Shown: positions 1,226 to 63,000, counted from the stretch's first letter. The stretch: DNA of 64,000 nucleotides from Psammoneis japonica (GCA_008632985.1 QPGO01000127.1:1-64000), one strand, 5' to 3'. A program made the numbers and translations. The notes: generated from the letters alone by a model not told the origin.

Positions 1226-1240
1226 CAGATGTGACCATTT

Positions 1241-10419: not shown

Positions 10420-10420
10420 G

Positions 10421-10457
<37 letters not shown>
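10420..10457. repeat. (GA)n microsatellite
   Basis: Direct reading of the sequence. Confidence 0.95.
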
Positions 10458-10785
10458 CAGCACACAGCACCGCCCGCCCATCCTCCTTTGCTCCACCCCT
10501 CTGTGCTCTGGTGCTTTGTTCAATGACATTTTGTGAGCTTTGATGGGCTTGTGAGTCCATCTGCCTCTCTATCATTCAATGAGCTGTCCACATCGAAGGT
10601 GCAATGCAAGTTCCCAATGCTCTGGACGTGCATGCAGGCTTCTCCAACTCCGTTTGACCGTGACACCCATGGCAATGTGGAACACTTCGATCACAATCAT
10701 TCAAATTTAGGGCTTTGTGCTTGATTGGGATGACTTTCTAAATAAAGAGTACCTCGCCAAAAAAGTCATTCACAACAATGCCACC

Positions 10786-13175: not shown

Positions 13176-13717
13176 GGTGTAAAACAAAAACAAAAAATCA
13201 CTTCCGACTGTATATTTTGTGAGCAGAAAACAAGTCAGGTGAGCATACTGACGGACGAGAAAATTGAAATTTCACATTTCACCATGATTGATCTTTCACA
13301 AATCGATTCGCTCTCAGACAACACTATCCCAACATCACATGCTTAGCATTCAGAATGCGTTCCATTACAGCGTCATGTTGGAGCAAACAATTCAATCATC
13401 AACAAAATGAGCAACGCACCGTGTCTTTCACAACACAATTCGACGGTAACGTGAGAAGTGAGTAGGTTTGGTGAAACGCTTGGTGTGCACCTCGTAGAAA
13501 ACTACGTGAGGTATTTTTCAGTAACAAGTACGACGGTAAGAGTACGAGTTCTGTAGAGCTCGAAACAAATGCTCTTCCGATGACTTGCATGACTGCCCGG
13601 ATGTCTTTCAACGGACATCCGATGCGTTGGACTTTCCGTTAGCCGTTAAATCAATTAACTTTGGCTCTGTCGGCGACACCCCCGAGCTCACAATGTCGCA
13701 ACAAGACAACAACAACC

Positions 13718-15340: not shown

Positions 15341-15574
15341 TCTCTCTGGTTTTAGACATCGATCGTGTTACCGTTTATTATTTGGTCACAATGTTCATCA
15401 TGACAATGTCAATCGGATGTAGCTTCCAACAAGTGGTGCGCCGGATGCTCATTTTCTATAGCCTCCAACCAGCTAGACCGATGTTCATTTTCTATCCTCC
15501 AACAAGCTAGACGGGTTCCATCCATTATTAGGTCGCTTTATCGGCAGAATACCAAGTACAACAGCCTTCTATAG

Positions 15575-15680
15575 TAGCTAGCGTACCAACTCTAGCTGCT
15601 AGCTCTCTCTATTCTCTAGAGCTCTCTCTAGACCGGTAAAGAGGACCTACTAACTCTAGCTACCGGTAGAGTAGAGAGAG
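15575..15680. repeat. CTAG/CTCT-rich low-complexity intergenic tract
   Basis: tagctagc..ctctagctgctagctctctct..ctctagagctctctctagaccggt..ctctagctaccggtagag. Confidence 0.6.
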
Positions 15681-16849
15681 AAGAATATCTCACGACCGCG
15701 AAACGCGACTGACTGCGTTGCACTGTTGATGACTGCGTTGCATGCAGTGTATAAGGGTGTAGGTGTACAAGTATTGATTGTTGATCCGCGGAGCTATTCG
15801 CTGAATATCAGCAAGCAACAAACAACAGCATGGTACACTCGTATCCAACAGAATAGCCTGAAAAACCATGCCGCGTTCACGGTGGACAACTGAGAAGAAC
15901 GGACGATGCTTTGCTTTGCAGAGGAGACGTGAACTGGCCATCAACGAATTCTGGGAGATTTCTTGTGATTCCCTGCTACGAATCTCTCTTCGGGGAATGT
16001 CCTGACGATCTTACGATGCCGAGGAAAATGGCGGGCGGACCGGCCGAGCTGAAGGAGCACCGGTTTATTTTGAAAGAAGATTGAAGACGACGCCTTCAGG
16101 CGACGTGTGGGGCTGACCATTCAAACGTATGAAATAGTTTAGAAGAAAACGAGCAACTCGCATTTTCATGTGAGCATCACCGGGCCCAGCTTGTCCTTTC
16201 ATTGTTAGGCGTAACAGACTCAGTTCAACCTGCTCAAGATGCTCAATCACTCCCCCTCCGGTTGGATTCAGCGCTTCTTCTGAGTCATATACGTACTAAA
16301 TAATCATCTTGCCCTTTGCGCACTCAAGAATTGCATTCACAACTCTGCTGGGCTATTGTGGATAAAAGATCTGGCAATCGTGTCTTCAGGGCAACATTCG
16401 TACAAGCGACACACCGCTCCTCACAATCGTCCCTCTGCCAATGTTGATCTTCATTCTATAGTCCTTGATCTTCAGTCGCCATGCAGTCACTTCGCCCTAC
16501 TACAGAGTAGTCTCTTGAATTCTCCGTCCGGTTTTACTTAGTGGCCTTGTCTACGGTGTATTCGGTCACTATGTTCATCACGGTAATGCCAGTCAAAAGT
16601 CACTTCCACTTCTTCCACTTCGTGGTGTGCCGGATGCCCGTTTTCTCTACAGCCTCCAACTACTGGACGGTTTCAATCCATGTTCGCCTGATCGGCAGAA
16701 CCTCAAATGTACCAAAATGGCAGCGAGAGAGTCCGAGGTAACGAGATCGCATTAGTCTCGCCTGTGTCTAGCCGTTTCATTGACATGCAATTGACAAGAC
16801 ATAGACGAGAATTGAGCGCCTCTGAATGTCTGCGACTCTGAAACAAAAC

Positions 16850-23300: not shown

Positions 23301-24283
23301 GAAATGTCCAACTCTTCTCATTGATCTTAACCTCAGGAGAGAATGATGGGTGGTGACAAATGTTGCACAAAGATCAGTCGCCACGGTCTGCAACGCCATC
23401 TTGCACCACAGTTTCTGCCTCAAAAAGCTTGTTCCCAGATTCACTGTTTCTGTGAAACACTGGATGCCTTGTGGCACACTGTTTCTTCCTGAAAGACCTG
23501 TGTCACAGTTTTTCCAACAAGGAAACAAATGAGTTGTGGTCTGACTTCCATGGCAGCCAGGTCTTTGATGATTCGGGCAAGGATTTTGATGCAAAGCACT
23601 CCAATTTGGTTGGCACCAAGGATGCCAGCCAGGGTTGATCCTTGTTGCAAGTGAGTTTGTCTTGTCCCGGGGAGGTGTCTGTGATGTTGGAGTTTGGACA
23701 ATTGCCGCAGAGATTGGTGGAGCAGCAGGTGCTGGAGTGTTCTCATCTTTTCTGTGGCAACAATCCCTTCTGTTGCTTCTGTTTCCTTGACACCCTGGCA
23801 CCCATTTGATCAGAAAGAAGTTCAGTGACATTGGCTGCAATTTTGCACAATTGTCAATGCAAAAGGGGATGCATGCCTTTTCATCAGCAGCATGCTGGAA
23901 ACAAAGCAAATCGCCCTTGCAGCCATTGTCATCATTGCAGTCAGCCCAGCAAGAAAACATGCAAAAAAGGAAGAGTCAACAGCAAAGCAAGCCCGTTTGC
24001 ATGTGAGCACAGAGAAGAGGTGAGAAAAAGAAAAGTTGGTCAAACAAGTGCTTGACTGAAAAGACAAAAGCAACACAGTGATGACCATGTCAAAGGAACA
24101 AGACGTCTCTTGCCTGGCACTCTTGCAAAGGAAAAGCAGACTCAGGCACGTGCGCGCCATTGCAGTCATCGTTGACATGAACAAGAAATCCTGGAGGTGG
24201 CACATGGCACAAATCAATTCCTCTCTCAGCTGCAGCACTCTCCTGTTCACAACCAGGAACAACTTCTTTGTCATCTCGAGTGC
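20346..24283 (+). repeat. ~1.5 kb direct segmental duplication (20346-21849 and 22778-24283)
   Basis: Both copies start gatgtcagcatctcctggtcactgcaagc and end ctttgtcatct.gagtgc; near-identical, differing mostly at CG/TG/CA sites. Confidence 0.95.
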
Positions 24284-24413: not shown

Positions 24414-25980
24414 TGTGGACCTCTTTGGTGTGACTGCTTCTTTTGTTCATTGATCTTTGCTCCCCGCACTCTTCTCAACTTGGAGGAGAACGGCAAAACA
24501 CACACAATTTTGCTGTCATTTGGTTGAATGCAGTGACAGCAGCTGCAGGAGAGCATTTTTGTTCATGTTTTTCTAACTGGCGGTTGATTTGTGATTTGTG
24601 ATTGAGGACCTTCAATGTGTGTCTGCAACAAAATTGCATTGAATGAGCAAACCATCTTTCTCACATGAATGTCATGCCAGGTGCAGTGCCCACATTTCGT
24701 CCTTTCTTCTTTCAAGATGAAAACAGCTGCTGTGACAGCTGCAAGGAGTGCACCGGTGCACTGGCCACTCACCTGCTGGAGTTTTCCACTCATGGCACTC
24801 TGCAAACCACCTGCCCAGCGAGCCATGAAATGTTGCCATCTTTTCCTTCCCAATGGCTTTTCCCTCTTGACATCATTTTCTGAGAAAAAGGCTTGGCATG
24901 CACGGCCCCTCAAAGGGCTGCCCATGGCTTGAATTTTGTGCTCCTGCACTGCAGCCATTCCAAGATCCAGGCTTTGGCGTGCTCCAATTCTTCAAGTTGA
25001 AGAAGAACATCATGCAAAACACTGTGTGACAAGTCAAGTGATGCACGACAAATGCAGAAAGGTGTGAGAGACATCCAGAGACAGCACAATTCTGAAACAA
25101 CATAAAATGTTGCAGAAGACTGTCAACAAACTCGTTGATTCAGTCTTCCACAGATTGTGGACCAACCAGAGCTCAAGCTGACACAACAAAAACAGATTCA
25201 GGCAATGTGAATGACAGACACAATGCATTGGTGACTTGCCCTGTGCAAAGGCCTCACTGCAATGCTCCAAGAAGTGTTTTGCAACATCTTGTGGTTGTTG
25301 CTGCATCAAGAGATTGTTGCGTGTGTGTTTGTTTCTTCTGTGATCGCAATGTGCCTGCGGTGAGATAACACTCGAGAGTTGTGCGCTAATTCATCCGGTG
25401 CAAAACGCCTCTCTGCTAGAGAGCTCTAGCTGGAGCCTGCACTGCAAATGAGAATCACTCTGAACAAGCTGTTTTCGCTCTAAATGAAAAACAAACAGAG
25501 CATTTTGCTCCGATTGCAAGTGCCAAAGGACCAATTGTGGCTTTGCTCCATTTGAGCCACAGTCAGAGCGACATGCTCTGTGCACAAGACAATCAGAGCA
25601 AAATGCCAACATTTGCCCTGTCCAACCGCATTCAGAGGATGCCTTTGATTAAGTCCAATTGTTCAGGGCATTCGCTTCAAACAACTGCAGCCTCCTGCGA
25701 CCTTTTACATTCTCAGAGCAAATGGTTTTTTTTCAAAGCAAACGAACAATGAACATGTGCACACACAACAAGACGCAATGATGGACGATTCAAAGCGTCA
25801 TTGGCACACATGCACGCATGCATTCACAGTTGCCAGTCAATGCTCGTAATCTCGTTTTTGTTTGTGGCGATCTCGTCGACGAGCATCGTTGTTGCTCTGT
25901 TGTTGTCAATTGTCGCCTGTGTGTTGGCGCATCACACACACAACACAATTTTTGCATTTCCACCTTTGTCTGCACAAGTC

Positions 25981-28900
25981 ATGGCCTCCACAGCCTTCTC
26001 CACATGCTGCAAACATTGCTTCTCGACTGTTCCATTGACTCAATGTGACAACTCCAACAGCATCGTAAACATGGGTGATTGCCTCTATTCCGGCAAATGT
26101 CTCAACCTGGAGTGTTCAGTTGATTCCTTTTTTGTCTGCGAATGCTGCTGGAACAGCAGCAACACAAACAGCGGTGGTCGTCATCTTCCAATTCTTAAAG
26201 ATTGGAAAACCTGCGTCAAGCACGCCAAAACTCCAACTCATGTGCAATCCTTTGAAGCTTTGAAAGCCGCACCAACAAGCAGTGCAAATGCCGTGTGTGC
26301 ACCGGCGGAGCCTGCACACGACAAATGTTGGTGCAACGATGACAATGACGCCTCTGTTTCCGAGAGCAAGGAGCCTTCCAACCAAGATGATTGGATTTAC
26401 GACGTCAATGATGCCGGCTCACGTCCTCCATTGCGCATTGATGATCTCCGACAAGGTTTTGATCCGGGCTCCAACAGCCCGGCCTTTTTTTGGTACGAGC
26501 ATTCGCACCCCGGACAAGGCATCCAGAAATTGACAGCTGACGCTTTTAAATTGCCCGTCACCAAGGTGACCAAAGAAGAGGCCCATTTTTCACTTGTGAT
26601 GGCTAGCCTGCTTTCACAACTCACCGAGAAACAACGTGAATTGTTGGCAGAATGCATGCTGCAAGCCACAAACAGCCGTGATCCAGACTTGTCCATTTTT
26701 CGTCGGACTCGTGTCCCCACTTCTGTGAAAGATTTTGAAATGTTGCATTTGTCCAGCAAATGTGCCATTGTGCCAAATTTGCCTCATCCTGTTCCCAGGA
26801 AAACCGATGATGGCAGTCATTCCTGTGTTTCCTTTAAAGACGTGCTTGCAAATGAGTTGGCAAAAGCCACGCAATTTGACAAGTTCTGTTTTGATGCGGA
26901 CGTCATTGTTCAAGATTCGCAACCTGCCATTTCGCGCACACCGGCGGCGCATTCCTTGTTCATGGAACTTAAAGAAGATGTTGACGGTTTTGTGTTGCAT
27001 CTTTGGGTGCGAGAATGGCATGATGACTTCGATCCCAATGGCACGAAGAAGTCACGCAATCAAGTGTGGCTCAACACGCACACCTGCTGCCCTCCTCCCA
27101 ATTCTTCCAGTGGACGCCACACCTGCTTCATGGCAATGTTTGTCCAAGGGGTGGAGACAACATTTGAACGTGAACTGCAGTTGTTGTCTGAAGAATGCCA
27201 TTGGTTTTACCATGGCGGCCTGCAGAAGCTCGTGCGGGTTAAAGCTGGCAAACTCAGTGTTTGTGTGGATCGGCCTGAACGTTCCTGCATGTTTCGTGTT
27301 GGAGACCACAATGGCAGCTGTTCAACGTTTTGGGAACATGCCTGTTGTGCAGATGGAAACTGTTCTTTCAATCACTTGCCTCATTGTCAGCTCTGTCGCA
27401 AAGCACATGTGAGCAACCATTTTAGCACGTCCGAGGATCCTTCTGATGTCGCCGACAATTCACAGGAAGAAGGAGCACCAGTGGATGGCGCAGTTGCAAT
27501 CAACGTTCCTCCTGTTTCTAGCACATGTCCACACAATGCTTGTGTGTCCTGGAATGTGCTCGACACCGCGTTTCGTTTTCTGGCTCCGGCTGACCACCCC
27601 TGTTCATGTGACCAACGCGAAGGTGCACCGAAACCTCCCACTGGCAGGGAAGTGACTGTCTTCAACCCGTCGGCACATGACATCCAATCCACTCAAGACT
27701 TGGCCACAGATCCATCCACATCGACCGACTCTTCTCGTCGCAGACGCAAACGCCAACGTGTGGCCGCCCCAAGACAATGGCTGGCCTCCATCAAACTCAC
27801 TGTTCCCTGGTTGCAGCAAGCAATCGTGTTTGCGCATCACAACATGAGAACACATCCGCCGGGCACCCCAAGTGCCAAGCGCTTTTGGACCAAAGCTAAC
27901 CTCGCGGCCTGTCTTCGCACTTGTGCCGTCATCCAACGCCACATCGACACAGTGTGCGCAGCTGCAAAATGCAATCTGCCTTGCCCAACACATCCAGCAC
28001 CTTGGCTTAATCCCAAAGCACTTTCACGTTGTCATTGTGCACCAATGCACACCATTGGTCTGGGCAATGTTAAAAGTGATTTCGAAATGATGTCCAAATT
28101 GTTCTCTCGATTTGAACTTCAGGCAACCTTTGGAAAGCAAGCAAACAAATGCTTGCGGTCCATCCAGTCCCTCCGATCAACCAAATGTTTTGCGGCTCAT
28201 CCACTGTCCACCAGCAAGTGGGGCACAGGTCCCTGGGTCAGTGAAAATTGCTTCTTTTGGGCAAGGACAGCAAAATTTATGGTTGCGCTGCCTTTGCTTC
28301 ACCAACAACGGGCAATGGACAATCACTCGGATTGTGCAGGTGTGTCACGGATGTTGCTTCGATTCGCTTCTGCCACACAAGCTTGTCTGAGCTGAGTCAT
28401 GTCTTCGGAGCGCGTTGTTGGGGACCTTCACGAAATGGTTTTGACACATTTGGATGCAATGGTCGAGATGGACATGTGGTTGATGAAAGCACCCTCAGAT
28501 GAGGCAGACAACGATGCCGTAGAAGGCGACGGTGAAGTTCAGAAGAAAAAGAAAAAAAAGGCGAACTTTGTGAAATCTGTTTCACTTGGAATGCTGGGAG
28601 TCGCGGAATCCCACCAACATGATGGACCGGCCATTTTGCATTGGGAGGGTGACGATTCTGGAGAAAGTGGTGTGCAAACTGTGAGGCCAGAGGTCAGCAT
28701 CAAACGCAGCAATGCAGACTGGCAAACAATCGCTTTGCGTCACATTCACCAACAGGCAACCATTTCTTGGCTTTTAGAACGTGACAGTGAGAAAGGTTCA
28801 TCGAAGAACAGACGTCTAGATGGCATCTTCAAAATCTACAGAAACTGGAACACATTGTTGGAGGCAAGACAGCAATGCCTTCCCTTTGCTGGCCTTGTGT

Positions 28901-29331
28901 CGTCCGATTGCACTGTGTGGTTGTTGTTTTGACCAGTGGGTGAAAAAGGAGCTGCTCGCTCCTCTGTAACTGCAGTTGCTTTAGAATTTGTGGATGAGGA
29001 AGGTGAAGAAATTTTGGACTTGTGTTGGATGGCGCCAGTTCAAGTGACAGACAGGAGAAAATCATTTGATGCGGCAACAGATCTTTGCAACAGTTTGGGA
29101 CATCAGTTTGTGCTGGCATTGCCAAGGATGGAAGATGATGGTGAAACGTTCGCAAACAGCTTTTATTGTGTCAGCCATCTGTGGAATGAAAGAACCAGAG
29201 ATGGATGCTTTGTGAAATCGGAACTCAGCTTGGACGTTTTCGATGATTGGTTGACAGCCGGCTGGCCATCAACTGCTCTGTCATCCATCTTGGTTGACAA
29301 TCCAGCCTGTGTGTTGGAGACAATGGCATGA
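25981..29331 (+). pseudogene. CACTA/Plavaka-like DDE transposase with two in-frame TGA stops (28393, 28930)
   Basis: WHDDFDP..K..NQVW (D1), VDRPER (D2), PMHTIGLGNVK (HxxxLG), GP...WEG...GE (E); three collinear in-frame ORFs; only 4 Tyr in the 864-aa ORF. Confidence 0.7.
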
Positions 29332-29468
29332 GCAGTGCACGTGCTCCAATGGTGGATGGACCCGTGAAGGAGCAGCGCACTTGCTCTTTTGTTTAAAGAC
29401 GCGCTGTTGTGGCCGACACGCAGCTAGCTGCGGGGGACAAGAAGGACATGCGAGCTGGGCATCTGCTC

Positions 29469-32400
29469 TCATTTCATGTTCCTCTTTCTCTTTATGAAGT
29501 GGAACTGTGCAGACCAGTCCCTCATCACGTTTGACATTTTGTTTTTGGCCAAAATGTCCAACATCGCCTCTGGTGGATTAGACAGCAGTTTGTCAAAATT
29601 GAACTCAAATGCAATTTGAATGGGACCATGATCCCAGGTCGACCCGGCCCAATCATTGTCCTCACACAGTTCTTTGGCAATCTCCTCCATCGTTTTTTCC
29701 TCACTTTTGCATGAAAAGTTTTGGATCAATCCACCGGGAGGCAGCTCTTTGGGGTCACTGGAACCATCAAAGTGACAAAGAAAATTCGCCTCATCGTGGA
29801 AAACAAAAAATGACATTCCTGCAAAATGGACATCGCAGCAGTTTGCCCTCCCTTTGCTGATCCAGAAGCGAAACATTTTGCAAAGAATGTTCTCAACAAA
29901 ACGAATGGTGAAGTGAGTGTCTTTCTTGTCATCACCCCCGGGGTTGTTCAACTGCACGGTGAATGCACCCTGCATGGTTTGAGCCAAACGGAGCATGTCC
30001 GCATCGTCCATCTTGCCCAGTCCATGTTCTTCGGCAATTTTTATGTTGGGGAGGGAATCCTTTTTGCAGTGGCAACAGTGCAGCATCCAAACAGGAAGCT
30101 GGCCAATTTCTGCCATGATCGCAATCGAATGATTGAGATGCAAGACGTCACATTGCGGGGAGAATTCAGACAACTGATTCATCAGTTTCTTGTAAATAGA
30201 GACGATGTCTTTGTTTTGTGGCTTGTTTGCATGCTCACTCCAAATGTCGCAAATCCACTTTCCCTTTTTGTCATTCCGTTTTTTCCATTCAGCCTTGGTT
30301 GGCAAGGGTGGTCTCTTGCTGCGTGACGCACATCATGGAGGGATGCCTCTAGAATGTGCCTCTTTTACGTGGACCATCATTTCGTAAATGAGATGTCCCA
30401 ATCCGCAGGGGTCGCTTGGTGGCTGGAAGGCATTGACGGATAAAAGAGCCAACGCAACTGCTCCAAAGCAACATGACTGTGCCGGGTGCACCTCGAAGCA
30501 AGTCTGAACAGCGACAATCTGCGGCAACGCAAGTGAGAATTTGTCAATCATTGCGACAGCGAAGTGTAGAAAGAGCTGGTGGTGTGACGTTGGTTCCATG
30601 TTGCAGTCGCCTTTTAATGCATCGATTCCTTTGCACCCCTTAAATCCTGTCAAGTGATCACAGACAAGTGCTGGCTCCAGTCGTTGCCGGTGCACGGGCA
30701 AGTTTTGGTGGGTGCAAATGGCTCGTGTTGTGATGGGCAAGGCAAGTCGAATCCTCTTCTCCGCAGTTTCTACAGAACTGCGGGTGCAAGCAATGGCAGC
30801 ATCTCTTGTTTCTCCATCATCTGTGATTTTTGAAACAGACAAAACTGGGGTCATGTCTTTGTTTTGGCCGTTGCATTCATCCGAGTGGCAATCCGTAATT
30901 TTGCCAAATTTGGCATTCGCCAGACGCAGTGCCTCCACGACATCATTTGCTGAGGCATCCGGCAACGAACCCGCGTGGTCTTGACATCGGTTTTTTGTCT
31001 CTTCATCGTGCCACAATCTAGATGTAAAAGCAGGATTCAGTGTCTTTGCAATTTCAGACATTGACTCAAAAAAAGGCATTGCTTCCTCAGCCCCTTTCCC
31101 AACTCGAGGCCGTGCAACACCATCAGCGTGGCCTTCCCTTGTAGTGCTTGTGTTGGTGCAAACGCCGAAATCTGCAAAGTGGTCCTTTGGTTGACGATGG
31201 GTCCCAGTTTTCTTGGGCTTGTTGCTTTTCTTTTTCTGAAAACGTTTTCTCTTGCCAGTTTTCTTGCCAACATTGCCTTTCCTTGTTTTCTTTCCCTGGT
31301 TGCTTTTCGACTCACGTTCATGGCATTTGTCAATCAGCGCGCGCGATCGGTCCCAGTCAATGCGGCAGATTGGGTGTTTGTTTGGAAAGTGGTCAAGCAC
31401 CAACATGAAGTCATTGCAATGGTCGGAATCAACATCACACAAGGACCATTTGATGTCAGTTTCATCCTGTCCAAGTGTTGACGCCAAATCCGGAATTGGC
31501 ACTTGGCAGTGGGGGATGTCTGCTCTGCTTGCCAAGCAAACCTGCAGTTTCGACTGGAAGACAACATGCAGATGGGTGACGTGCTTTTGCCTGCGTTCTC
31601 CAGACAGTTTCCCCAAATTGTCAAGTGCTTTGGCTTTTCCAGAATTACAACGGAAGCAAGCACTGTTCATCTCCTCAAACACAAAAACAACATTGAACAT
31701 GTTTTTAGCATGCAAGCTCTCTTCTTGCAGCAGGGAGCGGGACAACACCATTTTCTCCCGCCGAGTCTTGCAGTTGCCAGTGAAAGTTGGACGCTGCATC
31801 TGCAAGGGCAGTGCTGCCTCAAAAGCGCTTGAATGGCAATCAGATGATTCGTCTCTGCTTCCATTGGGCAAATCAGAATCGGAGAAATCAATGGGAAGTG
31901 CTGACACAACTGCGCCATCATGCCAATGCGATGATTGGTCACTCTGACTTGAGAAAACAGAATCAATGACATCGCTGTTTGTTGATGGTTCCTCGATGTG
32001 ATGCACAGAAGCCGAGTCCTCACAGCGTTTTGCTTCTTCCTGCATGTGCTGCTCACTCAGCAAGCAAAGCAACCGGTCTGCTGGTCTTCGCTTGCGAGGA
32101 GGTGGAGACCGTCCCAGGGGAGATTCCAGGCTGCGTGACCTGGATGTGGCAGATCTTGCACGGTGTGAGATTGGACTGCAACTTCTGTTTCTGCGGAGTC
32201 GCACTTGATGAAATGGGACCATGCCACTGTTGGTGGGTTGACTTGTTCTGCTTGAACTCCTTGAGCGGATGCTGTCATCTGCAGAACGTGCGGGAGGATG
32301 GCTTTTGTCCCAACCGCGACTCTCAGATTTCCTCGATGCACCCTGCCTGTGCGAGCGCAACGAATGCCTGGGTTTGCGAACACGCGATCGACCCCGACAC

Positions 32401-33161
32401 CTGGATGGTGACCTCAACATTGTTGGAGACCTGTTTTTTGACCTGGAGGGTGACCTGCACCTGGATGGTGACCTGTGCGGTGACCTGTGTCTACGCCGAG
32501 GTGACAATCTAGACCTTTCATTGGAAGAATCCAGAGACCTTCGACGAGACCATTGCGGTGAACTGGATGGAGACCTTTGGCGTGACCTCTGCCGCGATTG
32601 CGATCGACCGTGGTGATCCCTGCATGGAGAGTGGGGAACAGCACCACAACGTTCCCTGCAACTGTGCCGGGAACTTGAGTGATGGCAACCCATGGATGGT
32701 GACCGACACCGTCGCAGATGCCTTTGACGAGAATGAGACCCAGACCCAGAATGACGAGACCTTGATCGACAAGGAGAACCATGCGAAGAAGTTCCAGAAC
32801 GACAACGATGTCTGGTCTGATGACGCGATCGAGACCAAGAACTTGACAAAGAGCAAGACCGAGGACTTGACCAAGACTGGGACGGCGATTGACACCTTCG
32901 TCGTTGGTGAGAATTCGACCTCGACCTGCATCGCCGTTTGGACAGTCTGCGTTCCCTGGATCTGTCGTTTGGATTTGACCACAACCGACCTGTGGAACTT
33001 TGAACAGGCGATTTGGATCTTTGACGAATCAAGCGACCCGGCGGATCTCTTGATGGACGCGCACTCCTCATCCTTCTTCCCTTGGGAGCGCCAGATCTGC
33101 TCCAAGCGGGAGCATCACATTTGCCTTTTCCACGATGCATGGATGGTTGGAATTTGAGCAA
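29469..33161 (-). pseudogene. Transposon cargo: RS-rich N-terminus, HxDxxN...Rx5[Y] module and helical C-terminal domain with ENxLCK; one in-frame stop at 30333
   Basis: The 942-aa and 278-aa ORFs share a frame; motifs CHSDECN, RDAAIACTRSS, FVENILCKMFR; 1 Tyr in 942 aa. Function tentative. Confidence 0.55.
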
Positions 33162-33924
33162 GCAGATGCCACAATGAAAAACAATGAGAGCAGAACAGCT
33201 TCACAACTCCTTTGTCATTTGTGCGAGAATGTGATCGTGCAATGATGATGTCGCCTTTGTGTGGTCGTGATTGAGAGATGATGCACATGTTGGGTGAGTC
33301 AGAACATCGGAATCCGGAATTTTGCATGTCATCCCCTCACGTGGCCAACTGGTTGTGGCCGCCTGCAGCGCCACAAACAGAACACCACAAAAATTCTGTG
33401 TTCATCATAGAATTTAACAAGAAAATGAGTCCCCTCTTTTCTGTGACATCACTGCATTTGCCGCATGTCACAACAACACAAATGTGGGAAAAGCATGCAT
33501 CCATGACACCGCCACTGACACCGCTGTTGTCATCAAACTTTGCTGTTTGTGCAGTGCTGTCATCATTCATCCTTCCATTGCATGTTGTCATTTTTGTCAA
33601 CTTGTCAACAAGTGTTGACAATGTTGTGACCTTTGGCAAAGGTTCATTGCGAGACACCACCAGAACCAAAACTTCATCGCTGCTGCAAGAACAACACTGA
33701 GCTCACGGCACAGTCTGTACATTGTTTCTTTGTCTCGCATCTCAGACAATTTGGTGTGCATGCTGCATTTCGTTGACTCTTTACAATCATCATCAGGTGC
33801 TGCCACGAAATTGGTTGCAGACAAAGTCAGCAACTTCCTTGCATCTCCGCGTCAACTGCTGACAATTGTGCAGCAACGGACGAGTGGGACTGCCAGTCCA
33901 TCGCCCAGTGACATTCCGCTAATC

Positions 33925-45067: not shown

Positions 45068-45310
45068 AGCACTCAGAGCTTCTGCTAAAAGCACTCAGTG
45101 GATTGACACCACTGACATTTGCAACGACCCTGCTTGTTTTCCACAAGCGCTCGAGTTAGCGTGCAGGCACGTTGAGGGTTCCTGTGCTTTTACAAACATT
45201 CTGTGTAGCTGGCGATTCATGTTCATTGTCGGAAGGAACCTCCCGACCCACCCGCCTGGGGTCAGGTGCTCATCAATGATTTTTGCATGTCCTGCAATGT
45301 CAGGCAAGTG

Positions 45311-45700
45311 GACGCGTTCCAGCCCTAGGTGGGACTCCTTGTGACATTGGGCCCGTAGAATTCTACGTGCGAGCTCCGTAGTACGAGAATTTAATTAATG
45401 GATATATTTATCTTCAACATCAAATAAACGGCCAAGTTTGTGGTGCAATTATGCCTCTTACCACTCGACGTTTTTGCAACTTCGCCTGCCCTACGCGATT
45501 CTTAAGACATTGTAGAATCGCGCTGTAACAAAAAATGTCAAAAGTTGTTGGACGGATCGCTCAATAAGTGTACCGTAAAATGACACAAAATATCGAAAAA
45601 ATCACGTAGAAATCTACGTGCGCGACATACGACGAGACTCAAAAAACTATCGATGTCACAGTTCAGTAGTACGAGGTCCCACCTAGACCTGGAACGCGTC
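45311..45700. mobile_element. MITE family 1, young TpA-rich copy with 25-bp TIRs and 4-bp TSD AGTG
   Basis: gacgcgttccagccctaggtgggac ... gtcccacctagacctggaacgcgtc (23/25 inverted match), with agtg on both flanks. Confidence 0.92.
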
Positions 45701-47798
45701 AGTGATGCTCAAAGAATGCATCAACAATTTCATCATCAAAATTCACATGACTCAACGTTGGGCCCGGCACAGTTGGTTCGTGCTTCCCTTGCGCCCATGT
45801 GGCATGCTCGCGGATTGTTTCTTGCAGATCTCTTCATCTGCAAGTGCCAAAAAATCAACAAGATGCTGCTGCTGCTCCATTGACAGTTTCTTGGGTTTCT
45901 TTCAGGGAAGCTCTGCATCATCAAACTCGTCAAATGGCAACTCATCCTTGCCATTTTTGATGACTTTCACATTTTTGCTCACATCAAGCACACGTTTTTC
46001 ATCCTTGGGAAGAATGTCAAATTCAGTTTTCCACCCTGTGGTCAAATTTCTGGCTTCAAGTGCTCCAGAAAAACACACTCCTTGGTTTCCTGCCACTTTT
46101 GGAATGCACTGCCTCTGTGTGTTGTCGACATGAAACAAGCGATGCCATGTCACTTTGCGCCACTTGCCAATTTCCATTCGGCCGCTGCCAACACAAGTGT
46201 GCATCTTCTTCTTTCTTGAAGTTGCAAGATGTGTTTTTGAAGTTGTGTTGCTGCCACCACTTGCTGGTGGGTCAGAATTTCCCTCGTTGTCATTGTCGTG
46301 CTGCACATGCACTCCAGGAGTGACAAAATTTGACTCGCCTGTTGGGATTTGCTGCTTGGCAATGTCACCTCTCTCCAAAGTTGAGGTTGCACAAGTTGTC
46401 ACAGAAAGAGGTAAAACAACTGTGTCAGGTGGGAAACTGGCAACAAATCAGCTTCAACAGGCCCGTCGGAAGTGTTGAAGTCAGATGCCACGGTTTGTTC
46501 ACGCAAAAAGAAATTCTGTTGGATGCACCATGCATTTGGTGCATCGACATTGACAAAAACTTGCAAGATTTCAAAATTTCTTGCCTTGTGTGCCCCTCTT
46601 TCATTGAATGTCACCTTGCAACTGAGCAACAATCAAAAATCCAAAGAACTTCTTCAGATGAAGCTGCGCCAAGTTTACAAAAATGACCATTTTTGATGTG
46701 ATGTTTGATGTGACATTTTCAAAAAAATCAAATCAGAGTGGGTGACCACTGGCAGAGAGAGCCACTTGTGGGTTCAGCAGGCTGCTGCTGTCCCCTTGGT
46801 GAGTGTGGTCCAGGTGGCGCACAGCTGAGTGCATTTGGAGAGATTTGCAGTGGGCCGGTTTGGCAAAAATCATGTTGTGCTGCACCCATTTTGGCAAGTT
46901 TGACAAAAAATTGCAGCCAGCCAGTCTTGATTCAAAGTGTGGGTGCTGACACCCAGGAGCATGCGAGAAGAGATTTTAAGATGCCAAAGTTGCTGCCAAG
47001 AGCTGTGGTGGCATTGAGCTCTGGCGCTTTTTTTTTTTGTGGTGCAAGTGATTCAATGTGAGAGCTCACCTCCTTCTTGCCTGCTGGCGTGTCTTCTGGA
47101 GCTTTCCAAGCCCAATCCCAACCCAGCCAAGAGCTGCAAGAGCCACTTTCATGGCTCCATTGCTGTGCAGAGATTGGAGACTGGCTGCTCTGCATGAGTT
47201 CAAAAAGGCACAGCAGCAGCAGAGCAAAGCACTCTCACAGCAGCACACACAAAAATCTGAGAGTGCACAACGCACAACAAGAACAAACGGCAGCCATGGC
47301 TTTGGCTGGTGGCTCACAGCCCTCAGAAATTGAAGCATGTGTTTGCCCAGCTGGTGCTGTGCCACCTCCCAGGGCAGCACTTTTGTGCTCAGTTGTGCTT
47401 TTAAACCTGGACATGGGCAGGTTGGGGGCAGTTTGTGGTCACTTGCTGCAGCTTGAAGTTCTTTTTTTGTCTCTGCATCAAGTGAAAAAGCATTGTCAGG
47501 TGCACAGTGTGGAAAACTGGGCTCTGACATGATGACATTTGTTGCCCCACATTTTGATCTTTGTTGCACTGCAAATTGCACACACACCAAAATGCCTCCA
47601 TGCTGCTGCACCACGAACTTGGCTGTTCTTGGCCATCAGAGCTGAGAGAGAATTGCACTGTGATGGGTCAATGAGACAACAATCACAGCAGTGCTTTTGT
47701 TGATTTTTTGGGTTTTGTGCCATTTGTCATGTCTTCTCAAGAGCATTTTGACTCATGTCATTTTGTGCCACCATTTGGGGCTCAAGTGATTTGGATTT

Positions 47799-48024
47799 CA
47801 CCAGAAAAGCTCTGGAATGTCAAATTTGCATGGAAGCAGCACCAGGTCCCCAATGGAAATGCCAAAAAGTCTGGAATGTCAAGAAACTGCACAGAATTTA
47901 GCATGGAATCAGCACAAGGGATGTCAAAAAATTGTGACATTTTGGACTTTCTTGGCTTTTCTGCCAGGGCCCTGGTGCTGCTTCTGCACAAATTTGTTTT
48001 GTTCCAGCATTCTTTTGTTGGGTG
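47799..48024. mobile_element. MITE family 2, second eroded copy
   Basis: Aligns with 3081-3322 (ctctggaa..tcaaatttgc.tggaag.agcaccagg..gaaatgccaaaaa..agggatgtcaaaaaat..cttctgcacaa.ttt); CAC...GTG ends. Confidence 0.7.
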
Positions 48025-50837
48025 GCTTGCTGCAGACCTTGCTGGGAGGTGTTCTGGTGCCCAGGAAAGTTCATCAGGTAAACAACAAGCAGTGCTGGAG
48101 ACAACAGCAGCAGCTGCTTCACTGTGCTGGTTGAAAGCTGAGAGCAAGACAAGCCCACTGCTGAGAGACAAATCTCTGGCAAGTGCAGAGCGACCATCTC
48201 CACAACAACCAACCCACCCAGCGCTGCTGCTGAAGCAGCTGAAGCAGAGTGTGGTTGTTTGGGAATGCACGCAGGTCTTCAAAACTGCAGCCAAGTCATC
48301 AAATCAATGACAAAATCAACATGGTGCAAAACAATTTGCCTCAAAAGGCAATGGATGGAAAGACAGACACAAAACAGAAGGACTTCTCTCATCTCTGTTG
48401 AGTGACACCAGACAGATGACCCCTGCCTCCCTCTCATTCACAGGTGTCAACAATCAACAACAAAGTTGCAAAACCAAAGTTCTTGCACAACTGGCACAAC
48501 AACTGGCTGGTGCAACAAGTCCAGGGGACAACTCCTGCATCTCACCTGAGCCACAGCATGTGGCAAGCATGCAAGAAATGCTCCCAAAAATCTGCCAGCC
48601 TTTGGCCTGTTCCAGCCCCAGGTGACCCGCATTCCATCATGCAAGAGGCCAATTTTCTGCACAGTTTGCTGGCACATCAAAACTCCTTCAAATTTGATTG
48701 TTTAAAAAACAACAAAAAGGTGAAGGCACATAAAAATTTAAAGTTGTGTGTGCATTCATCCTTCAATTTGGAAAAAAAAGATTTTGAAGGAGAGTTTGCG
48801 TTGTGCCAAATGCAAAAACAATGGGCCACCAGTGATGGTGGATTGTGTGTGCCTGTGTGGGACACCTGGAGCAGCTGGAACAGGCCCTTTGATCCTCAAC
48901 AGAAAAAACAGTTGGGTCAATCAGTCAACTCCATTTGACTGCAACAAACTCATCACCATGGGACCAAAACCAGTGCTGCTGAAGACATGACAAAGTGCTG
49001 GGGGTTTGGTTGGTGACATGATGCGGTGTTTGGTGTCACCAGCAGGTGGAGTGCAGCATTGCCAAAAAGTGGGGGCTTGGGTTTTCAAAAGCAGTGAGAA
49101 AACAGCTGACAGCATCCAAGACAGTGGCGAGCTGCAAAAAAATGTGCGAGAGGTCACAGCAGGTGACAGAGGCACTTGTCAGATTTGGGCTCGTGTGCCA
49201 TGCGGTGCACAGATGCTCACTCACACTTTGTGAAAGAGGGGCCCATGAAGCCGCAGGCCTGGCACATTGTCTGTTCCTCACTTGGCTGCGAGATGCATGC
49301 ACCACAATTTGTGCAGAAGACTTGATCATTGCAAATTGCAAAATCATCACACAGAACAACAACTCAACAATGATGGTTTCCTGTTCCCTCTCAATGGTGT
49401 GTTTTGGGAATGCCATCATCACACATCATGTCGGAATGAACAACGGAAAAGAAAAGTGCAGCAAGTCAGCAGTGCAGTCAGCCAGCATGCATCGGAACAA
49501 ACAACAAAAAAAAAACAGCAAGTGGAGAGCACAGTGATCCTTGCAGGATGCAGGAGCACAAGATGAGATGAATGGTTGCGTGCCACCATGGTTGAGAACA
49601 CCTTGTCATGTTGGGACACAGTTCTGTGGGGGACAGGACAAGGAGTTGGTGTTGCTCTTCCTGTCTCTTTGGTGTGCACCAATTCTTTCCAATTGTTTCT
49701 TGATGCCATTGGCTTGTTTCCTTGATCTTTGGGTGGAACCACAGGTTCTCATGAAAGCAGATGCACCTTGCGCCATAGAGTCAATTGAAGCAGGGTGAAG
49801 AATTCCTTGCATCAAGCGTTTTGCACTGCTGCCGTTGCAGATTGCTGCGGGTGCGGGAGTTGACAGAGCCTTGAGGCCCAGTGGCAGTTGTGACTGTTCA
49901 GCATGTGCTTGTTGTCATGCAAAAAATAATTGAACGCCAACATGAGTTGAGCATCCAGACACCATGGCCAAGCCAAAATGCAAACGGCTGCAAGTCTTGG
50001 GCTGAGGACAAACCACCGCTGGTCATGTGGTCGAGACTCTCACGCAAAACCAATGTTGTGAAGAAAGATGCAAAGTGAACGCAATTTCATTTTCAAACAT
50101 GCTTCTAGTTTAGAGAAGAACATGGAACAATGATCATCACTCCAAAGCAACCATTGTTTCTTTCAAGGCTGGCGACTTCCCCACCCAAGAGTTGCCGCAT
50201 CGTGATCGTTCGAAAGGACAGCAGCACAACACACCATCAGAGTTGCCTTTGTCATTGTTGAATCGTTCAATGCATGAGTTAACCTTGGCTTGAACCTCAT
50301 CAGGTGAGGTCTTGGGCCTCTTTGCACTCTGTCGGCGGCAGCAGCAAAATAGCAAAAATGCACGAGAACGAGTGATGTCAAAATGGTTCATTAAATCAAA
50401 ACTGGGAAGCTGCATCGCATTATAGATGCTTTCTAATGGGGATGTTAGACACAATAATGCACCGATGCAGCCTCCCACATCAACATTGACGACGTCGCAA
50501 CAGCAAACTCACCATGGTTGAGGGCACACATTTGCCACACAAAAAGTACGAGGAATTCGGATGGCGGACGAACATTGAAGAAAATATTTTAGTCGAATTA
50601 TTCCAGCTTAATGATCACCCCCAGCCACGTACCGGTAGCAGAAGTTTCACCGCAGTGCATACTACATACAGTACATACAGAGATCTACAGTATCTATCAC
50701 TTCTTTATGTATGCTGTCCGTCCGTCGCTCACTCATCGACTGCGGGACAGCGGTCCGAAATTTTCAGAAACGTTATTTTGCCGTTACCAATGATCACTAC
50801 GTTTTCAGCTCACTCTGCTCAACGCACAATTGTTACC

Positions 50838-53059
50838 ATGGTGTCGGTCAAGAAAAAGAAACGCCCACCGCCCTACGGCGTCACTACTCGTCTTAAAAAC
50901 AGGCTCTCTTTGTTATTGATTTCGATTGTGGTGATTTTAGTAGTGACAAAAATCATGTCCTCCAATGTTAAAACAGCAAACAAGGTAACGCTCCAAGCCG
51001 CCAATCGCATCATGACGGCTGCACCGTGGTTGATTCCTTCCGAACAACTTGCCAACTTGTATGGGCACGTTTTGCAACAAGAAGAAGTGACTGTAGGACA
51101 GACTAGTATCTTTGGGCCACAACATTCTCAACAGAGTAGTAGTATTACTGGTCGATTTTATTCTCTGGATGAACGGCACGCGTACATGCAACACTATGGA
51201 GATCAGTGTCTGGCCGGATTATTCCAGCGATATATGGAATTACCCACGCTGCATCAGACTGAGATTTGGAAGTGGTGTTATTTCTATTTAAAACACGGCA
51301 ATGTCTATCTAGAAGCAGACAATGTTGTGTTGTTGCAAGAGTTATCCGAAATTATTACAAAACAACAACGAGCGGTGGGAATACGGATTGAAGGAGAATC
51401 GCGCATTCACGGTTCGCTCTTGAAATTGCCAATTTCGTCCAATTTACCACTGTACATGCTTCAAAAACTCCTAAAAGTACCCGTTTCGTTTTTGAAGAGG
51501 GACTTGTTTTGGGCTCAGCGAACGCTCTACGATGCGATTCACAACAATCACGATTGGACGCTGTACAAGGCGTCTTGTTTGGAATTGCACGATGGCTTCT
51601 ACCAACCACAACAGAGCAGTGTGCTACTGCAAGAACCCAAAGTGCTTTCCGTACAAGAAAAAATGATGCAAGTCTTGAAACAACAACCACACGCTTCTTC
51701 CTTTACAACAAGTCGTCTTCCTCCGACACACGGCAAGACGACTACCTGTCCCGTCAAGGGTGGGTATTGTTGTCAAGTCTCTTTGGAGGACACACCCATC
51801 CTGTTGCTTCGACACCCAGGTCCTTCTATCGAACAACAACAGTCTTCTTCTGATGATGATGAAGATTACAATTCCGTCGTGACGCTGGAAAAAACCGGAC
51901 TACAACCCAACGATGACATGACGCTATCCTTTTTTGACATTGCGTTACAAAATGATTGTTTGGACGCCACCATGGAATGTCACAAGTGTTTAAAGTCCAC
52001 AAAGCGAGGAACCTGTCGCGTCTGCAAAGAGTCGTGCCCGTGTTATTGCAATATCTTGTGTAAGATTCGTCCACCACCCAAACCAATCACCATGTTGTAC
52101 AGGGTATCACCACCTAAATCAAAAGGGACGCGTCCCGACTCATTCCCCGCATCATCCATCAAACGTGGTACGAAGATGTCACGCCGGAAAAGTATCCCAA
52201 CATGTCCGCTTGATTGAATCGTGGAAACGATCCGGATGGGAGTATTACTTTTACAATGACGACGTGGCGGGGGAATTCTTGCAAGAGCACTTTCCACCGC
52301 ACGTACGAGAAGCCTACGATGCCCTTTTGCCGGGAGCCTTCAAGGCGGACTTGTTTCGGTATTGCGTCTTGTTGATACGGGGTGGTGTGTACGCCGATAT
52401 GGATGTCTTGCTCGAATCCAATCTCGACGAGGCCATTGGCCCCGACGTGGGCTTCATGACACCCCAGGATGAACCGGGCATCAAGGTGGGACACCGGAGT
52501 TGTCTGTGGAACGGACTGTTGGCCGTGGCACCCGGACACGTGTTTTTGGCCAAGACGATTGAAATGGTGGTCAATCATGTACGGAATCGATTCACATCGA
52601 TCGACTATGACGACATGCTTTGTCCCGATCCGGCCTTGTCCGTCTCGCACACGGTCGATACGCTTTTTGTGTGCGGACCGTGCATTTTGGGTGCCGGGAT
52701 CAATGCCGTGTTGCATCGCATTTGCAAGCAGAATTTGAAATTGGTGAAGTGATTTATTTGAAAATTCCAGAGAGGTCCATCCGGACGATCCGCGCTTGAG
52801 CATTCCCGGACGAACGATTATTTTGCAACAAAACAAGGATGACATGGGTGCGCATCGATTTACTCTAGTTGAAAAGTCCCTCGTGGTGGCGGCGACCGAC
52901 ATGCCCGATTACGATGATAGACCGTCCCATATCAAGCACTATTCCGATACACACGAAAAGGTGGGTGTTTATGGACTCAAGAATTTGTACACCAATTCGC
53001 AACGTGCCAATGAAGAGATTCAGATTGTAGTGGAACAAACAGCAGAAGCGATAATGTAG
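50838..53059 (+). CDS. GT32 (Och1-like, DXD) glycosyltransferase, type II membrane; frameshifts near 52130 and 52730
   Basis: GAFKADLFRYCVLLIRGGVYADMD, LWNGLLAVAPGH; N-terminal TM; degenerate first GT32-like domain (EIWKWC..GNVYLEAD). Confidence 0.85.
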
Positions 53060-56100: not shown

Positions 56101-56212
56101 TGTGGCGTTCGAGATCAATCGATTGGTAGTGCAAATCATAGTGACGTGGGATGGCTGTCGGATATAGCCGTCCTGGTCCTGGTGGTAGAGTTAGTTTTGT
56201 GTTGCCGCTCAT
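53159..56212 (-). CDS. M1 family (puromycin-sensitive-like) aminopeptidase, multi-exon, with apparent frameshifts
   Basis: PRHYDL, TQFEP, MSTYLVA, GAME|NWG split by a GT-AG intron (54979-55060), HELAHQW..WLKEG, YAKG, ERAP1-like C-terminus. Confidence 0.93.
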
Positions 56213-56319
56213 CCTCTCATGGTGAATGCGGCCCCTGATTTTTTTTTTCTGCATCCATCAGCCATCATGGCGTCAGTGCGCGGCGCCGCGTCCATAGCGT
56301 CGTCGATTTACACGACTCA

Positions 56320-57330
56320 AGGGGGCACGCAGAGAGCATCTCTTGCTTCATGGGTGAGTGTCTTCGGACTCAAGAATTTGTGCACCAACCTGGAACGGGC
56401 CAATGAAGAGATTCAGGTTGTGGCAGTGAAATGCAGCAGCAGAAAAAGCGCACATGGTGCTGAACGATGCGGAGCAATGCAGAGCACAGAATTTGCTCAC
56501 TCTTGATGCTGGTGGTGGGCTTTGACTTGCACATCACCTGGACTCCAAAATGACAGGGCTGCATGTGCAAAAGAGAGCTGCGCACTGCAGTCACTGGCTG
56601 CAGCTCCACGTGGTGTAGAGCACACAGAGTTTGGTGCACTCATGATGATGGCTGGCTTCAACTGGTGGCAACCTGGGCTCTGAATTGACAGGGCTGCACG
56701 AGATTGAAAGATTCCACAATTGAGTTGTCACTGTGCTCTGCAAAAATGACACAACACATGCTGACTGCAGCTTCAAGCCAAAGCACCAAAACACCACAAA
56801 CATGGTGGTGCATGGCTGGACTTGCAGAGGGGGCACAATTTTCCAGTGGAGCAATGGCGTTTTGCATGGCAGCACCACCACATCTAGAAACAACCATGTC
56901 ATGACACCGGTGGTGATGCAATGGTGCTGGTGGCCATCTTTCAATGTCTGAGTCTCCCGCCAGCAGGAGCAAGCATGGCGGAGTGGAGACTTTTAAATTG
57001 AATGCCAACAGCACAGAACCACCAAGAAGTTGGAGCTGATGTTCATGTGCAGAGCACATGTGGTGAGACATGCCATCTCACATCAAGAAGTTGATTTCTG
57101 GGTTCCATGATCATGCCAAGCTCTGACCAAGGCCACAACCAAAAAGCTCGTGGCCGTGTTCATCATCAGGAGCGAGAGTGCTCTCAAAAAGAAAAACTCA
57201 AATGGGTCATTTTTCCATGGTTGTTGGTGCCCAGTTGGAAGATTTCGAGCATGTGAGGAGCTGTGCAACACATGCAAACATTTGCGACACTTTCTTTCTA
57301 AATGCCTTGTGATGAGCTTCGATCGCGGTG
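56320..57330. other. Small TpA-depleted patch with a copy of the GT32 3' end and other degenerate gene fragments
   Basis: 56350-56425 translates VFGLKNLCTNLERANEEIQVV vs VYGLKNLYTNSQRANEEIQIV in the intact gene; minus-strand LAGDSDIERW may be an SGNH-like remnant. Confidence 0.75.
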
Positions 57331-61890: not shown

Positions 61891-62129
61891 CTTTAGCAGT
61901 TTCTTTTCTAGATTCGACACAACTGAAATGAAAAGGTGCATCTTAGGATGTCTTATGTTCTCTCCATCTCTCGTCTCGCTTTGTTGTTCTGTTCGTTTTT
62001 TTTTGCTTGCGGACAACGCGATCTTTGGGTTCAACAACGCGCGAGCGAGCGTCACCGAGATTCGCTGGACACAGCCGAACACCGAACACCGACCGACTGC
62101 AGAACGCCATCTCCGACGACCGACCGACC

Positions 62130-63000
62130 GACGTCATCGCTCATTGTGTTGTGAGTGACAGCGAAACAACAAAACAATGGAAGGGCCATTGCACTCCGCA
62201 CGTCCCAGGCATCGTCTCTGGCACTTCCCTTTCCTGCTGTGGTGTCTCTTGTGTTTTGTGCCACAGAACTCCTCCTTTCACACATGCACGACTGCTGCAC
62301 CCTTCTTGCGGTTTTCTCCCCGGCCGTGCCGCCGCCAACTCAACTTTTGTTGATCATTTTGGGATCCACCACACCTGCTAGAAAGGTTGCACCACAGTGT
62401 CCCCTACGTCAATGTCTGCTGCCTCTGCATGGTGACAGCTGGCTCGCGAGCAACTCTCTCCAAAACCTCCCCAATCAACTGGGCAAGCCCTTTGGCTCTT
62501 TCTCTGTCTGCAGCATCACACCTTTCACAGCACTGCCCCCAGCAAAGCTACCCATCTTGCCAGGGAATTGTCCCACATCAAGAGCCAAGCCCCTCCTTTG
62601 CAAGTCTGCTGACTGCACCATCACCGCCTGCACGTGTGCTGCAGCTGAGGGCCCAGTGTGTCTCCTGAGCTGCTGCGCTCTCACCTCCCTCTCCTCCATG
62701 TGGCAGCTCCCCCACAAAAACCCCCTCACTGCCCAGTTCCTGCCCTTGTTGGGCAGAGGGGATGGGCTCTCTCTCTCTCTCTCTGCAATCTGTGATTGTT
62801 GGCAATTGATGCGATTGTTTGCAGTTGATGTTCTGTTTCTGCATCCATCTTCAGTGCTGAGTGCAATGATGGCAGATCTCTCACCAGTGGCACCTGCCAC
62901 TCTCTAGAGAACATCTCTTGGGTGAGTGTCTTTGGTCTCAAGAATTTGCGCACCAGTTCGGAAAGGGCCAACGAAGAAATTCAGATTGTGGTTGCAAAAT
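62130..63000. other. Small TpA-depleted patch ending in a third copy of the GT32 3' fragment
   Basis: 62905-62995 matches 56331-56425 and 52960-53032. Confidence 0.75.

Follow-up and report, generated by a model that had tools for sequence, protein, structure and literature searches.

A TA-rich element in a TA-poor tract

The 64,000-bp stretch of Psammoneis japonica DNA analyzed here (QPGO01000127.1, hereafter the window) contains, at 45311–45700, a short element rich in the dinucleotide TA, surrounded by DNA from which TA has almost disappeared. This locus raises the question of whether TA is the ancestral state, lost by mutation from the surrounding tract and from other copies of the element, or whether the TA-rich copy is itself the derived one.

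The element has the features of a MITE, i.e. a non-autonomous TIR DNA transposon. It is short (390 bp) and has no coding capacity, the longest stop-free stretch being 53 aa. It is bounded by clean 25-nt terminal inverted repeats (TIRs) at 45311–45335 (plus strand) and 45676–45700 (minus strand), which are 92% complementary, and a 4-bp target-site duplication (TSD), AGTG, is read from the sequence at 45307–45310 and 45701–45704. The TSD differs between the insertions, and the empty site has a single AGAG in its place (see below). A 19-nt subterminal inverted repeat (45351–45369, plus strand; partner at 45603–45621; 89%) lies further inside, and the copy number is high. A degenerate TIR pattern matched the window four times, at the four arms of this copy and of the relative described below, against 0.01 matches expected. 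The 4-bp TSD is variable and does not identify a superfamily. Pattern scans with the conserved subterminal 36–40-mer gave 0 matches in viral_contigs and 0 in metagenome_contigs.

Simple segmentation of the window delimited five large TA deserts. Together they cover 39,628 of the 64,000 bases (62%), with a TA o/e of 0.03–0.13, a CG o/e of 0.17–0.97 and TG/CA mostly at 1.4–1.9; the corresponding values for the whole window are 0.27, 0.66 and 1.5. GC content in the deserts is 0.46–0.54, near 48%. The main desert extends from 20300 to 50349 (TA 0.03–0.13, CG 0.22–0.97, TG and CA each mostly 1.4–1.8) and is broken only by the element and a few short patches. The other deserts lie at 1–5329 (TA 0.05, CG 0.32), at 8218–10707 (TA 0.04, CG 0.17) and, as 1.1- and 1.0-kb tracts within gene-rich TA-normal DNA, at 56194–57298 and 61956–62999 (TA 0.07 in each). 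The element carries 28 TA and 29 CG. At the desert rate of 5.9 TA per kb only 2.3 TA would be expected in 390 bp (Poisson p 5e-21), and both the anatomy given in the preliminary description and its picture of a TA-rich island within a desert of about 30 kb were thus confirmed.

The TA-normal blocks have a TA o/e of 0.4–0.9 and contain recognizable genes (GH125, a NeuB/cytidylyltransferase fusion, a STAND ATPase, an M1 aminopeptidase and DUF2828/DUF7788). The best named matches of the M1 aminopeptidase are from diatoms (Attheya 67%, Fragilaria 66%, Fistulifera 61%, Seminavis 57%), as against 53% at most for brown algae, oomycetes and Triparma. Neither this enzyme nor the NeuB fusion had an identical protein among its matches. 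The desert borders are sharp, and the intergenic spacers of the gene blocks are TA-normal too (24 TA in 15501–15750, for instance), so that the contrast is between domains and not between coding and non-coding DNA. TA loss is therefore confined to sharp-bordered domains, and gene blocks are spared together with their spacers. A Pfam search on 19 desert ORFs at E<=1 returned nothing above chance-level matches, and for most of the desert sequence in the window no origin was recognized.

The insertion is polymorphic

We looked for other versions of the locus in run X1, which contains 94% of the words sampled from the locus. This run is probably the sample from which the window came, and it therefore adds other copies and not an independent genome. 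Two of its contigs skip the element: one joins 45308 to 45704 (depth 34) with one letter between, and the other joins 45308 to 45710 (depth 60) with nine unmatched letters. The contigs carrying the filled site have similar depths, 61 and 70. Both empty versions have a single AGAG where the filled site has the duplicated AGTG. The insertion is thus polymorphic and hence recent, as had been claimed from the sequence of the TA-rich copy.

The 45308/45704 contig is about 11% diverged in its flank and may represent a paralogue or a distant haplotype, whereas no flank differences are listed for the 45308/45710 contig. The run thus contains three versions of the locus over 45308–45710, one filled and two empty, of which one is about 11% diverged in its flank; this suggests divergent haplotypes or a segmental duplication.

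A relative of the element has lost every TA in its alignable ends

A second copy of the same MITE, either old or from an older subfamily, lies at 4389–4771. Its TIRs are degenerate and, as the preliminary description had indicated, it has its own TSD (TCAG, at 4385–4388 and 4772–4775). The two copies are 62% identical overall, and of the 79 aligned columns at each end 62 and 61 agree. At the 10 sites where the ends of the young copy have TA, the old copy never does: six read TG, one CA and two AA, and one falls in a gap. Indeed, the alignable ends of the old copy contain no TA at all. The earlier count of eight TG/CA and two AA sites with none retained is therefore correct as to retention and the two AA sites but becomes seven TG/CA sites, the remaining one being in the ambiguous gap; the three sequence examples quoted for the change from TA to TG or CA are all present in the pair. 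The CG sites of the young ends fared differently, since 8 of 14 (57%) are kept. There are also 12 transversions between the two copies in 158 columns, and the interior of the old copy aligns poorly, so that this copy may belong to another subfamily and not be a simple older descendant.

Listed A>G and T>C changes in the family lie at TpA and run from TA to TG/CA

To go beyond a single pair, the variation in the whole family was read from run X1. At 80% likeness, 2860 of its contigs align to the element; by likeness, 431 are at 99% or above, 715 at 95–99%, 1069 at 90–95% and 645 below 90%. The summed word depth reaches 4.8e5 on the element compared to 61–104 on its flanks, a rough guide and not a copy number, and from these values we take the copies of the family to be of the order of thousands.

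Sixty variable places were found, consisting of 18 A>G, 18 T>C, 7 G>A, 4 C>T and 13 others; 40 of the 60 are listed individually, with depths that are sums over collapsed contigs and thus not copy counts. All 19 listed A>G or T>C changes within the element are at TpA, a context that accounts for 25.7% of its A/T positions (binomial 6e-12). Among the places listed, 17 of the 28 TA sites vary to TG or CA, as against 2 of the 44 TG/CA sites that vary to TA (Fisher p 1.8e-7). The TG/CA variants listed at the 17 sites make up 18–78% of the depth, and the highest converted share is 78% G at 45649. At two TA sites, 45403/04 and 45405/06, both a CA and a TG derivative occur; TA is the only dinucleotide that is one step away from both, which supports TA as the ancestral state.

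A family consensus with TG or CA at these sites would make the TA-rich copy the derived one. Weighted by depth, TA prevails at 10 of the 17 variable sites; the other 11 TA sites have no listed variant. TA is in the minority at the remaining 7 variable sites, with TG predominant at 5 of them (56–78%) and neither TG nor CA in the majority at 2. The consensus is thus mixed, and the reading of TA as ancestral withstands this check. In loose-end consensus sequences the converted interior of the old copy recurs across many contigs, so that a converted subfamily may itself have amplified.

Conserved tyrosines in desert reading frames root the change

The deserts contain long open frames whose homologues provide an independent root. 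The frame at 25753–28395 (plus strand; 880 aa, no Pfam domain) belongs to a multi-copy, transposon-like family and consists of 0.5% Tyr, 5.7% Cys and 5.0% His. It has 46 homologues with 36–49% identity on environmental eukaryotic contigs, none of them with a Pfam domain, and 29 of the 30 homologues examined contain 1.6–4.4% Tyr, about 2.5% Cys and about 2.8% His. Conserved Tyr columns were defined as columns covered by 15 or more homologues of which 60% or more have Tyr. At the 12 such columns the frame has 7 Cys, 3 His, 1 Tyr and 1 Phe, the Cys and His codons being TGY and CAY, whereas 245 of the 284 other conserved columns are kept (p 1e-8). A second frame, at 30333–33200 (minus strand; 955 aa, 0.1% Tyr, 24 homologues, all distant), shows the same pattern: 5 Cys and 2 His at 7 majority-Tyr columns, against 84 of 139 other columns kept (p 0.002). 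Pooled, the 19 Tyr columns contain 12 Cys, 5 His, 1 Tyr and 1 Phe, that is, Cys or His at 17 of 19.

The homologues are fair outgroups, because the TA o/e in the gene is 0.32–0.77 at 17 environmental loci of the 880-aa family, compared to 0.11 in the tract 25483–29492; in none of these 17 loci is TA as poor as in the window. The statement that TA is ancestral is thus supported by the variation within the family and by the outgroup columns.

More generally, Tyr accounts for 0.1–1.0% of residues in all six long desert frames against 1.8–4.6% in ten frames from TA-normal blocks. Changing TA to TG or CA destroys TAA and TAG codons and makes no new stop (TAA to TGA only swaps stops), so that frames remain open. 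The long desert frames are therefore most likely dead genes that stayed open after losing conserved residues.

One environmental homologue of the 880-aa frame (P0268, JGI) contains 0.1% Tyr, and 13 of its 15 conserved Tyr columns read Cys or His, suggesting that the same conversion took place in at least one other sampled copy. A single 90%-identity cluster of this family has 204 members over Mb-scale contigs, which is the behaviour of a transposon gene. Family members are about 1100 aa long. They have CxxC/H motifs at the N terminus and invariant motifs, W..DDFDP and DRPER among them, and they probably form an undescribed transposase family. In the ESM Atlas the 880-aa frame gave no more than a lead, to Plavaka/Transposase_21 (score 0.89–0.90), with recognition below the reliability mark. 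A Pfam search on homologues of both long frames found no domain except a Tudor domain on one protein, and the 880-aa family profile had no match below E 0.15 among PDB sequences.

Position counts as well as age, and TpA is probably lost faster than CpG

The difference between the two MITE copies had been put down to age. A second inverted-repeat element, at 5238–5735, shows that position counts as well, a point that the earlier reading missed. This element spans the desert border at 5329/5330, and its 52-nt arms (5238–5289 and 5684–5735) are 85% alike. The arm on the desert side has TG or CA at 5 of the 5 TA sites of the right arm. Both arms of one insertion have the same age, so that conversion here is bounded by the domain edge; alternatively, the arms may come from different insertions. 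The restriction of TG/CA to the desert-side arm also supports the direction from TA to TG/CA. The motif AGTCCCACCT occurs both at the ends of this element and in the inner part of the TIR of the MITE.

A third small repeat of about 90 nt (52960–53047, 56353–56444 and 62921–62999; 79% alike) has three TA in the copy that lies in TA-normal DNA. At these sites the other two copies, which sit within or next to the 1-kb deserts, have TG or other states, a hint that conversion can affect a single insertion and leave its flanks untouched. These repeats start at GGTGAGTG / GGTGGGTG, resembling a 5' splice site, and may be introner-like or intron-borne.

The relative speed of TA and CG loss can be assessed at three levels. 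In the pair, TA is gone from the ends while 57% of the CG sites are kept. In the family, only 2 of the 29 CG sites of the element have a listed change, against 17 of the 28 TA sites. Across the deserts, tracts with TA at about 0.1 still have CG at about 0.65, and a CG as low as about 0.2 goes only with a TA of about 0.04. From these three we infer that TpA loss outpaces CpG decay several-fold in these tracts.

Two direct repeats of 1.5 kb (20346–21849 and 22778–24283), 929 bp apart and 98.3% identical, are both TA-free. Of their 23 differences 22 are transitions and one is a transversion, and about half are CpG versus TpG/CpA, which places the duplication after the loss of TA. The repeats could be LTR-like or a tandem duplication. 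A 250-bp repeat common to two deserts (3074–3338 and 47802–48042) matches in both orientations (63–72%), which would mean a palindromic old element.

A TpA-specific hypermutation as the probable cause

The variation in the family and the outgroup columns establish the direction of change, from TA to TG or CA, and its restriction to TpA, just as the empty site establishes the youth of the insertion. Taking these together, we consider it very likely that a recent, polymorphic, high-copy MITE inserted into a silenced, transposon-derived tract that had been stripped by a TpA-specific hypermutation. A:T to G:C changes at TpA (TA to TG, and TA to CA when the other strand is hit) would strip TpA from silenced transposon-derived DNA, and a slower decay of CpG to TpG/CpA would run alongside. 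The young MITE would keep the family's original TA and CG because it inserted after most of this mutagenesis, while the copy at 4389–4771 and a large share of the family would have been converted. Dead transposon genes would persist as long ghost ORFs. The targets observed are the MITE family, a multi-copy transposon-like gene and intergenic tracts.

The same signature has been described in the chlorarachniophyte Bigelowiella natans (10.64898/2026.01.13.699255). According to that preprint, 231 of the 302 nuclear mutations in mutation-accumulation lines fell in an integrated giant virus and virophage, and 230 of these 231 were A to G or T to C, all at TpA. The rate is given there as about 6e-7 per site per generation, and the hypermutation occurred in only 11 of 15 lines, so that the only direct evidence for episodic action comes from that organism (10.64898/2026.01.13.699255). 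A per-generation rate about 1000 times background and activity in some lineages only are taken as marks of the B. natans type. The same text reports 124 clusters genome-wide of TpA-poor, CpA+TpG-rich windows and an enrichment of low-TpA genes for DDE and reverse-transcriptase domains (10.64898/2026.01.13.699255).

The two cases have much in common: transitions exclusively from TpA to TpG/CpA, confinement to regions, depletion of TpA with a gain of CpA and TpG, and depleted sequences that in B. natans are enriched in transposase and reverse-transcriptase domains and in unannotated genes. Three features of the B. natans type are found here, namely A to G and T to C changes that are all at TpA among those listed, the direction from TA to TG/CA, and regional confinement; with the cut-offs of the preprint, 37 of the 64 1-kb windows qualify as TpA-poor and CpA+TpG-rich. 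The cases also differ. B. natans belongs to the Rhizaria, whereas the best named matches of one protein here, the M1 aminopeptidase, are diatoms. There, a giant virus and a virophage are hit, Rho TpA is at least 0.45 and the clusters are small; here, 62% of the window is at 0.03–0.13, a MITE family, a transposon-like gene and intergenic tracts are hit, and CpG loss goes alongside. By analogy, the process at work in the window is likely to be of the same kind as the regional TpA hypermutation of B. natans.

Other known systems resemble the process in part. Like RIP in ascomycetes, it involves dinucleotide-specific transitions that inactivate repeated or mobile DNA and leave aberrant tracts beside normal genes. 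However, RIP changes C to T at CpA and yields TA-rich, GC-poor DNA, whereas here A:T is changed to G:C at TpA, TA is removed and GC stays near 48%. We therefore rejected fungal RIP as the origin of the deserts, the direction being the opposite and the deserts being TA-free at a GC of 0.46–0.54. Like the decay of methyl-CpG in vertebrates, plants and methylated diatom transposons, the process goes with a lowered CG o/e (0.17–0.7) and a gain of TG/CA. Methyl-CpG decay was rejected as the cause of TA loss, as it cannot remove TA and as 8 of 14 CG sites are kept where TA is gone; it accompanies the loss without explaining it. APOBEC3 (C to U in DNA) and ADAR (A to I in dsRNA) likewise hypermutate parasitic nucleic acid by context-specific transitions, but they act on ssDNA cytosines or on RNA. 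For a heritable A to G change at TpA of chromosomal DNA, we know of no characterized enzyme.

We lean towards an enzymatic process that serves as a genome defence and is directed at silent or foreign DNA. As to its chemistry, we tentatively put forward that the adenine of TpA in DNA may be deaminated and then read as G, the agent being a TadA/ADAT-like enzyme or another deaminase. Mettrop et al. propose a candidate ADAT2-like adenine deaminase acting on DNA, and the preferred 5' neighbour of ADAR fits TpA (10.64898/2026.01.13.699255). Stramenopile-specific CDD/CDA-like deaminases with Tudor arrays are catalogued, as uncharacterized, in PMC3239186. Strand-coordinated clusters of TG versus CA were absent from the five desert and four normal segments submitted to a runs test (z −2.5 to +2.0), with desert and normal classes alike; this result is neutral towards a deaminase and neither helps nor excludes it.

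Alternative explanations

A different chemistry would leave the same changes. If the thymine of TpA were modified or oxidized, to 5-hydroxymethyl- or 5-formyluracil by a JBP/TET-type hydroxylase, it would pair with G and give T to C. A change of TA to CA is indistinguishable from TA to TG on the opposite strand, and the equal numbers of A>G and T>C places in the family (18 and 18) accord with either. The 5-hydroxymethyluracil of dinoflagellate DNA occurs preferentially at TpA, and mispairing with G is a property of 5-formyluracil. Against this, the sole published proposal for the signature known to us is the candidate ADAT2-like adenine deaminase (10.64898/2026.01.13.699255), and we regard thymine chemistry as unlikely.

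The TA-rich copy might be protected rather than young, the element or its site escaping mutagenesis and being possibly as old as the desert. The one-arm conversion of the 5238–5735 element shows that the process depends on position, and gene blocks of a few kb do stay TA-normal beside deserts. Yet the flanks of the element are TA-free up to the target duplication (0 TA in 45751–46000), and the conversion of very many family copies, that at 4389–4771 included, shows that the sequence itself is not immune. Element-free contigs for the exact site, in the same run and at depths similar to the filled ones, also speak against an old insertion. Protection is thus very unlikely.

Selection instead of mutation, with TA (and CG) avoided for the sake of nuclease or restriction avoidance, DNA flexibility or nucleosome positioning, is still harder to maintain. 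A mild under-representation of TpA is common in genomes, and the gene blocks here, at 0.4–0.9, conform to it. But the loss of TA in the deserts removes conserved Tyr (17 of 19 columns), which selection for function would oppose. Moreover, individual MITE copies are found at every intermediate stage, and the replacement is always a transition product, TG or CA, which rises to 1.4–1.9. In B. natans, finally, the mutational origin was measured directly (10.64898/2026.01.13.699255). We consider selection highly improbable.

The reverse reading, in which the family master had TG/CA and a RIP-like C to T change at CpA/TpG made the TA-rich copy, draws on the facts that fungal RIP gives exactly a TG/CA to TA signature, that A>G and T>C at TpA relative to the young copy are by themselves symmetric as to direction, that TG is the family majority at 5 sites and that 45445 and 45512, TG in the young copy, are TA in 35–37% of the family depth; it is barely credible in view of the 2 of 44 TG/CA places listed as varying to TA against 17 of 28 in the other direction, the CA and TG derivatives at 45403/04 and 45405/06, the TGY/CAY codons of the window at Tyr codons conserved in outside homologues, the desert DNA examined, which is TA-free and not TA-rich whether repeated or single, and the direction from TA to TG/CA measured in B. 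natans (10.64898/2026.01.13.699255). Each of these last three readings, protection, selection and reversal, is thus contradicted by at least two results.

Significance of a probable TpA hypermutation in a diatom-like genome

What is new here, on our preferred reading of a TpA-specific hypermutation, is its signature in another lineage, on transposons, and over a much larger share of the DNA. Our literature search on TpA loss in diatoms found nothing, the B. natans preprint being the one report of the signature; a preprint on diatom transposons (10.1101/2025.10.24.684338) never mentions MITE, dinucleotide or TpA.

If the hypermutation reading is right, TpA hypermutation is no chlorarachniophyte curiosity: it would shape most of the non-genic DNA in an alga that belongs to another supergroup lineage, and its targets would include transposons as well as integrated viruses. 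In such genomes, dating transposons by their divergence from a consensus would make them seem far too old, converted copies would be missed by repeat finders, and long Cys/His-rich, Tyr-less "orphan" ORFs would be dead transposon genes unable to gain stops. The broadest version of this idea is that an alga of the diatom lineage has a DNA-editing defence targeted to chromatin domains, which clears TpA out of DNA of transposon origin more quickly than methyl-CpG decays, that this defence forms, together with that of Bigelowiella, an old and widespread SAR defence, and that most of the intergenic genome is converted; this could well be so, although we stop short of calling it likely. The MITE family, whose thousands of copies span all stages of conversion, would then provide dated natural substrates and a built-in clock for rate, episodes and targeting, and the polymorphic young insertion offers a defined locus for following the onset of conversion.

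One gene of the TA-normal blocks deserves a separate mention. At 13643–15340 (plus strand), a CMP-sugar cytidylyltransferase and a NeuB sialic-acid-type synthase are fused in a single frame. The best named relatives of this fusion are from a chlorarachniophyte (Amorphochlora) and Amoebophrya, followed by actinobacteria, which suggests a nonulosonic-acid pathway gene common to marine protists.
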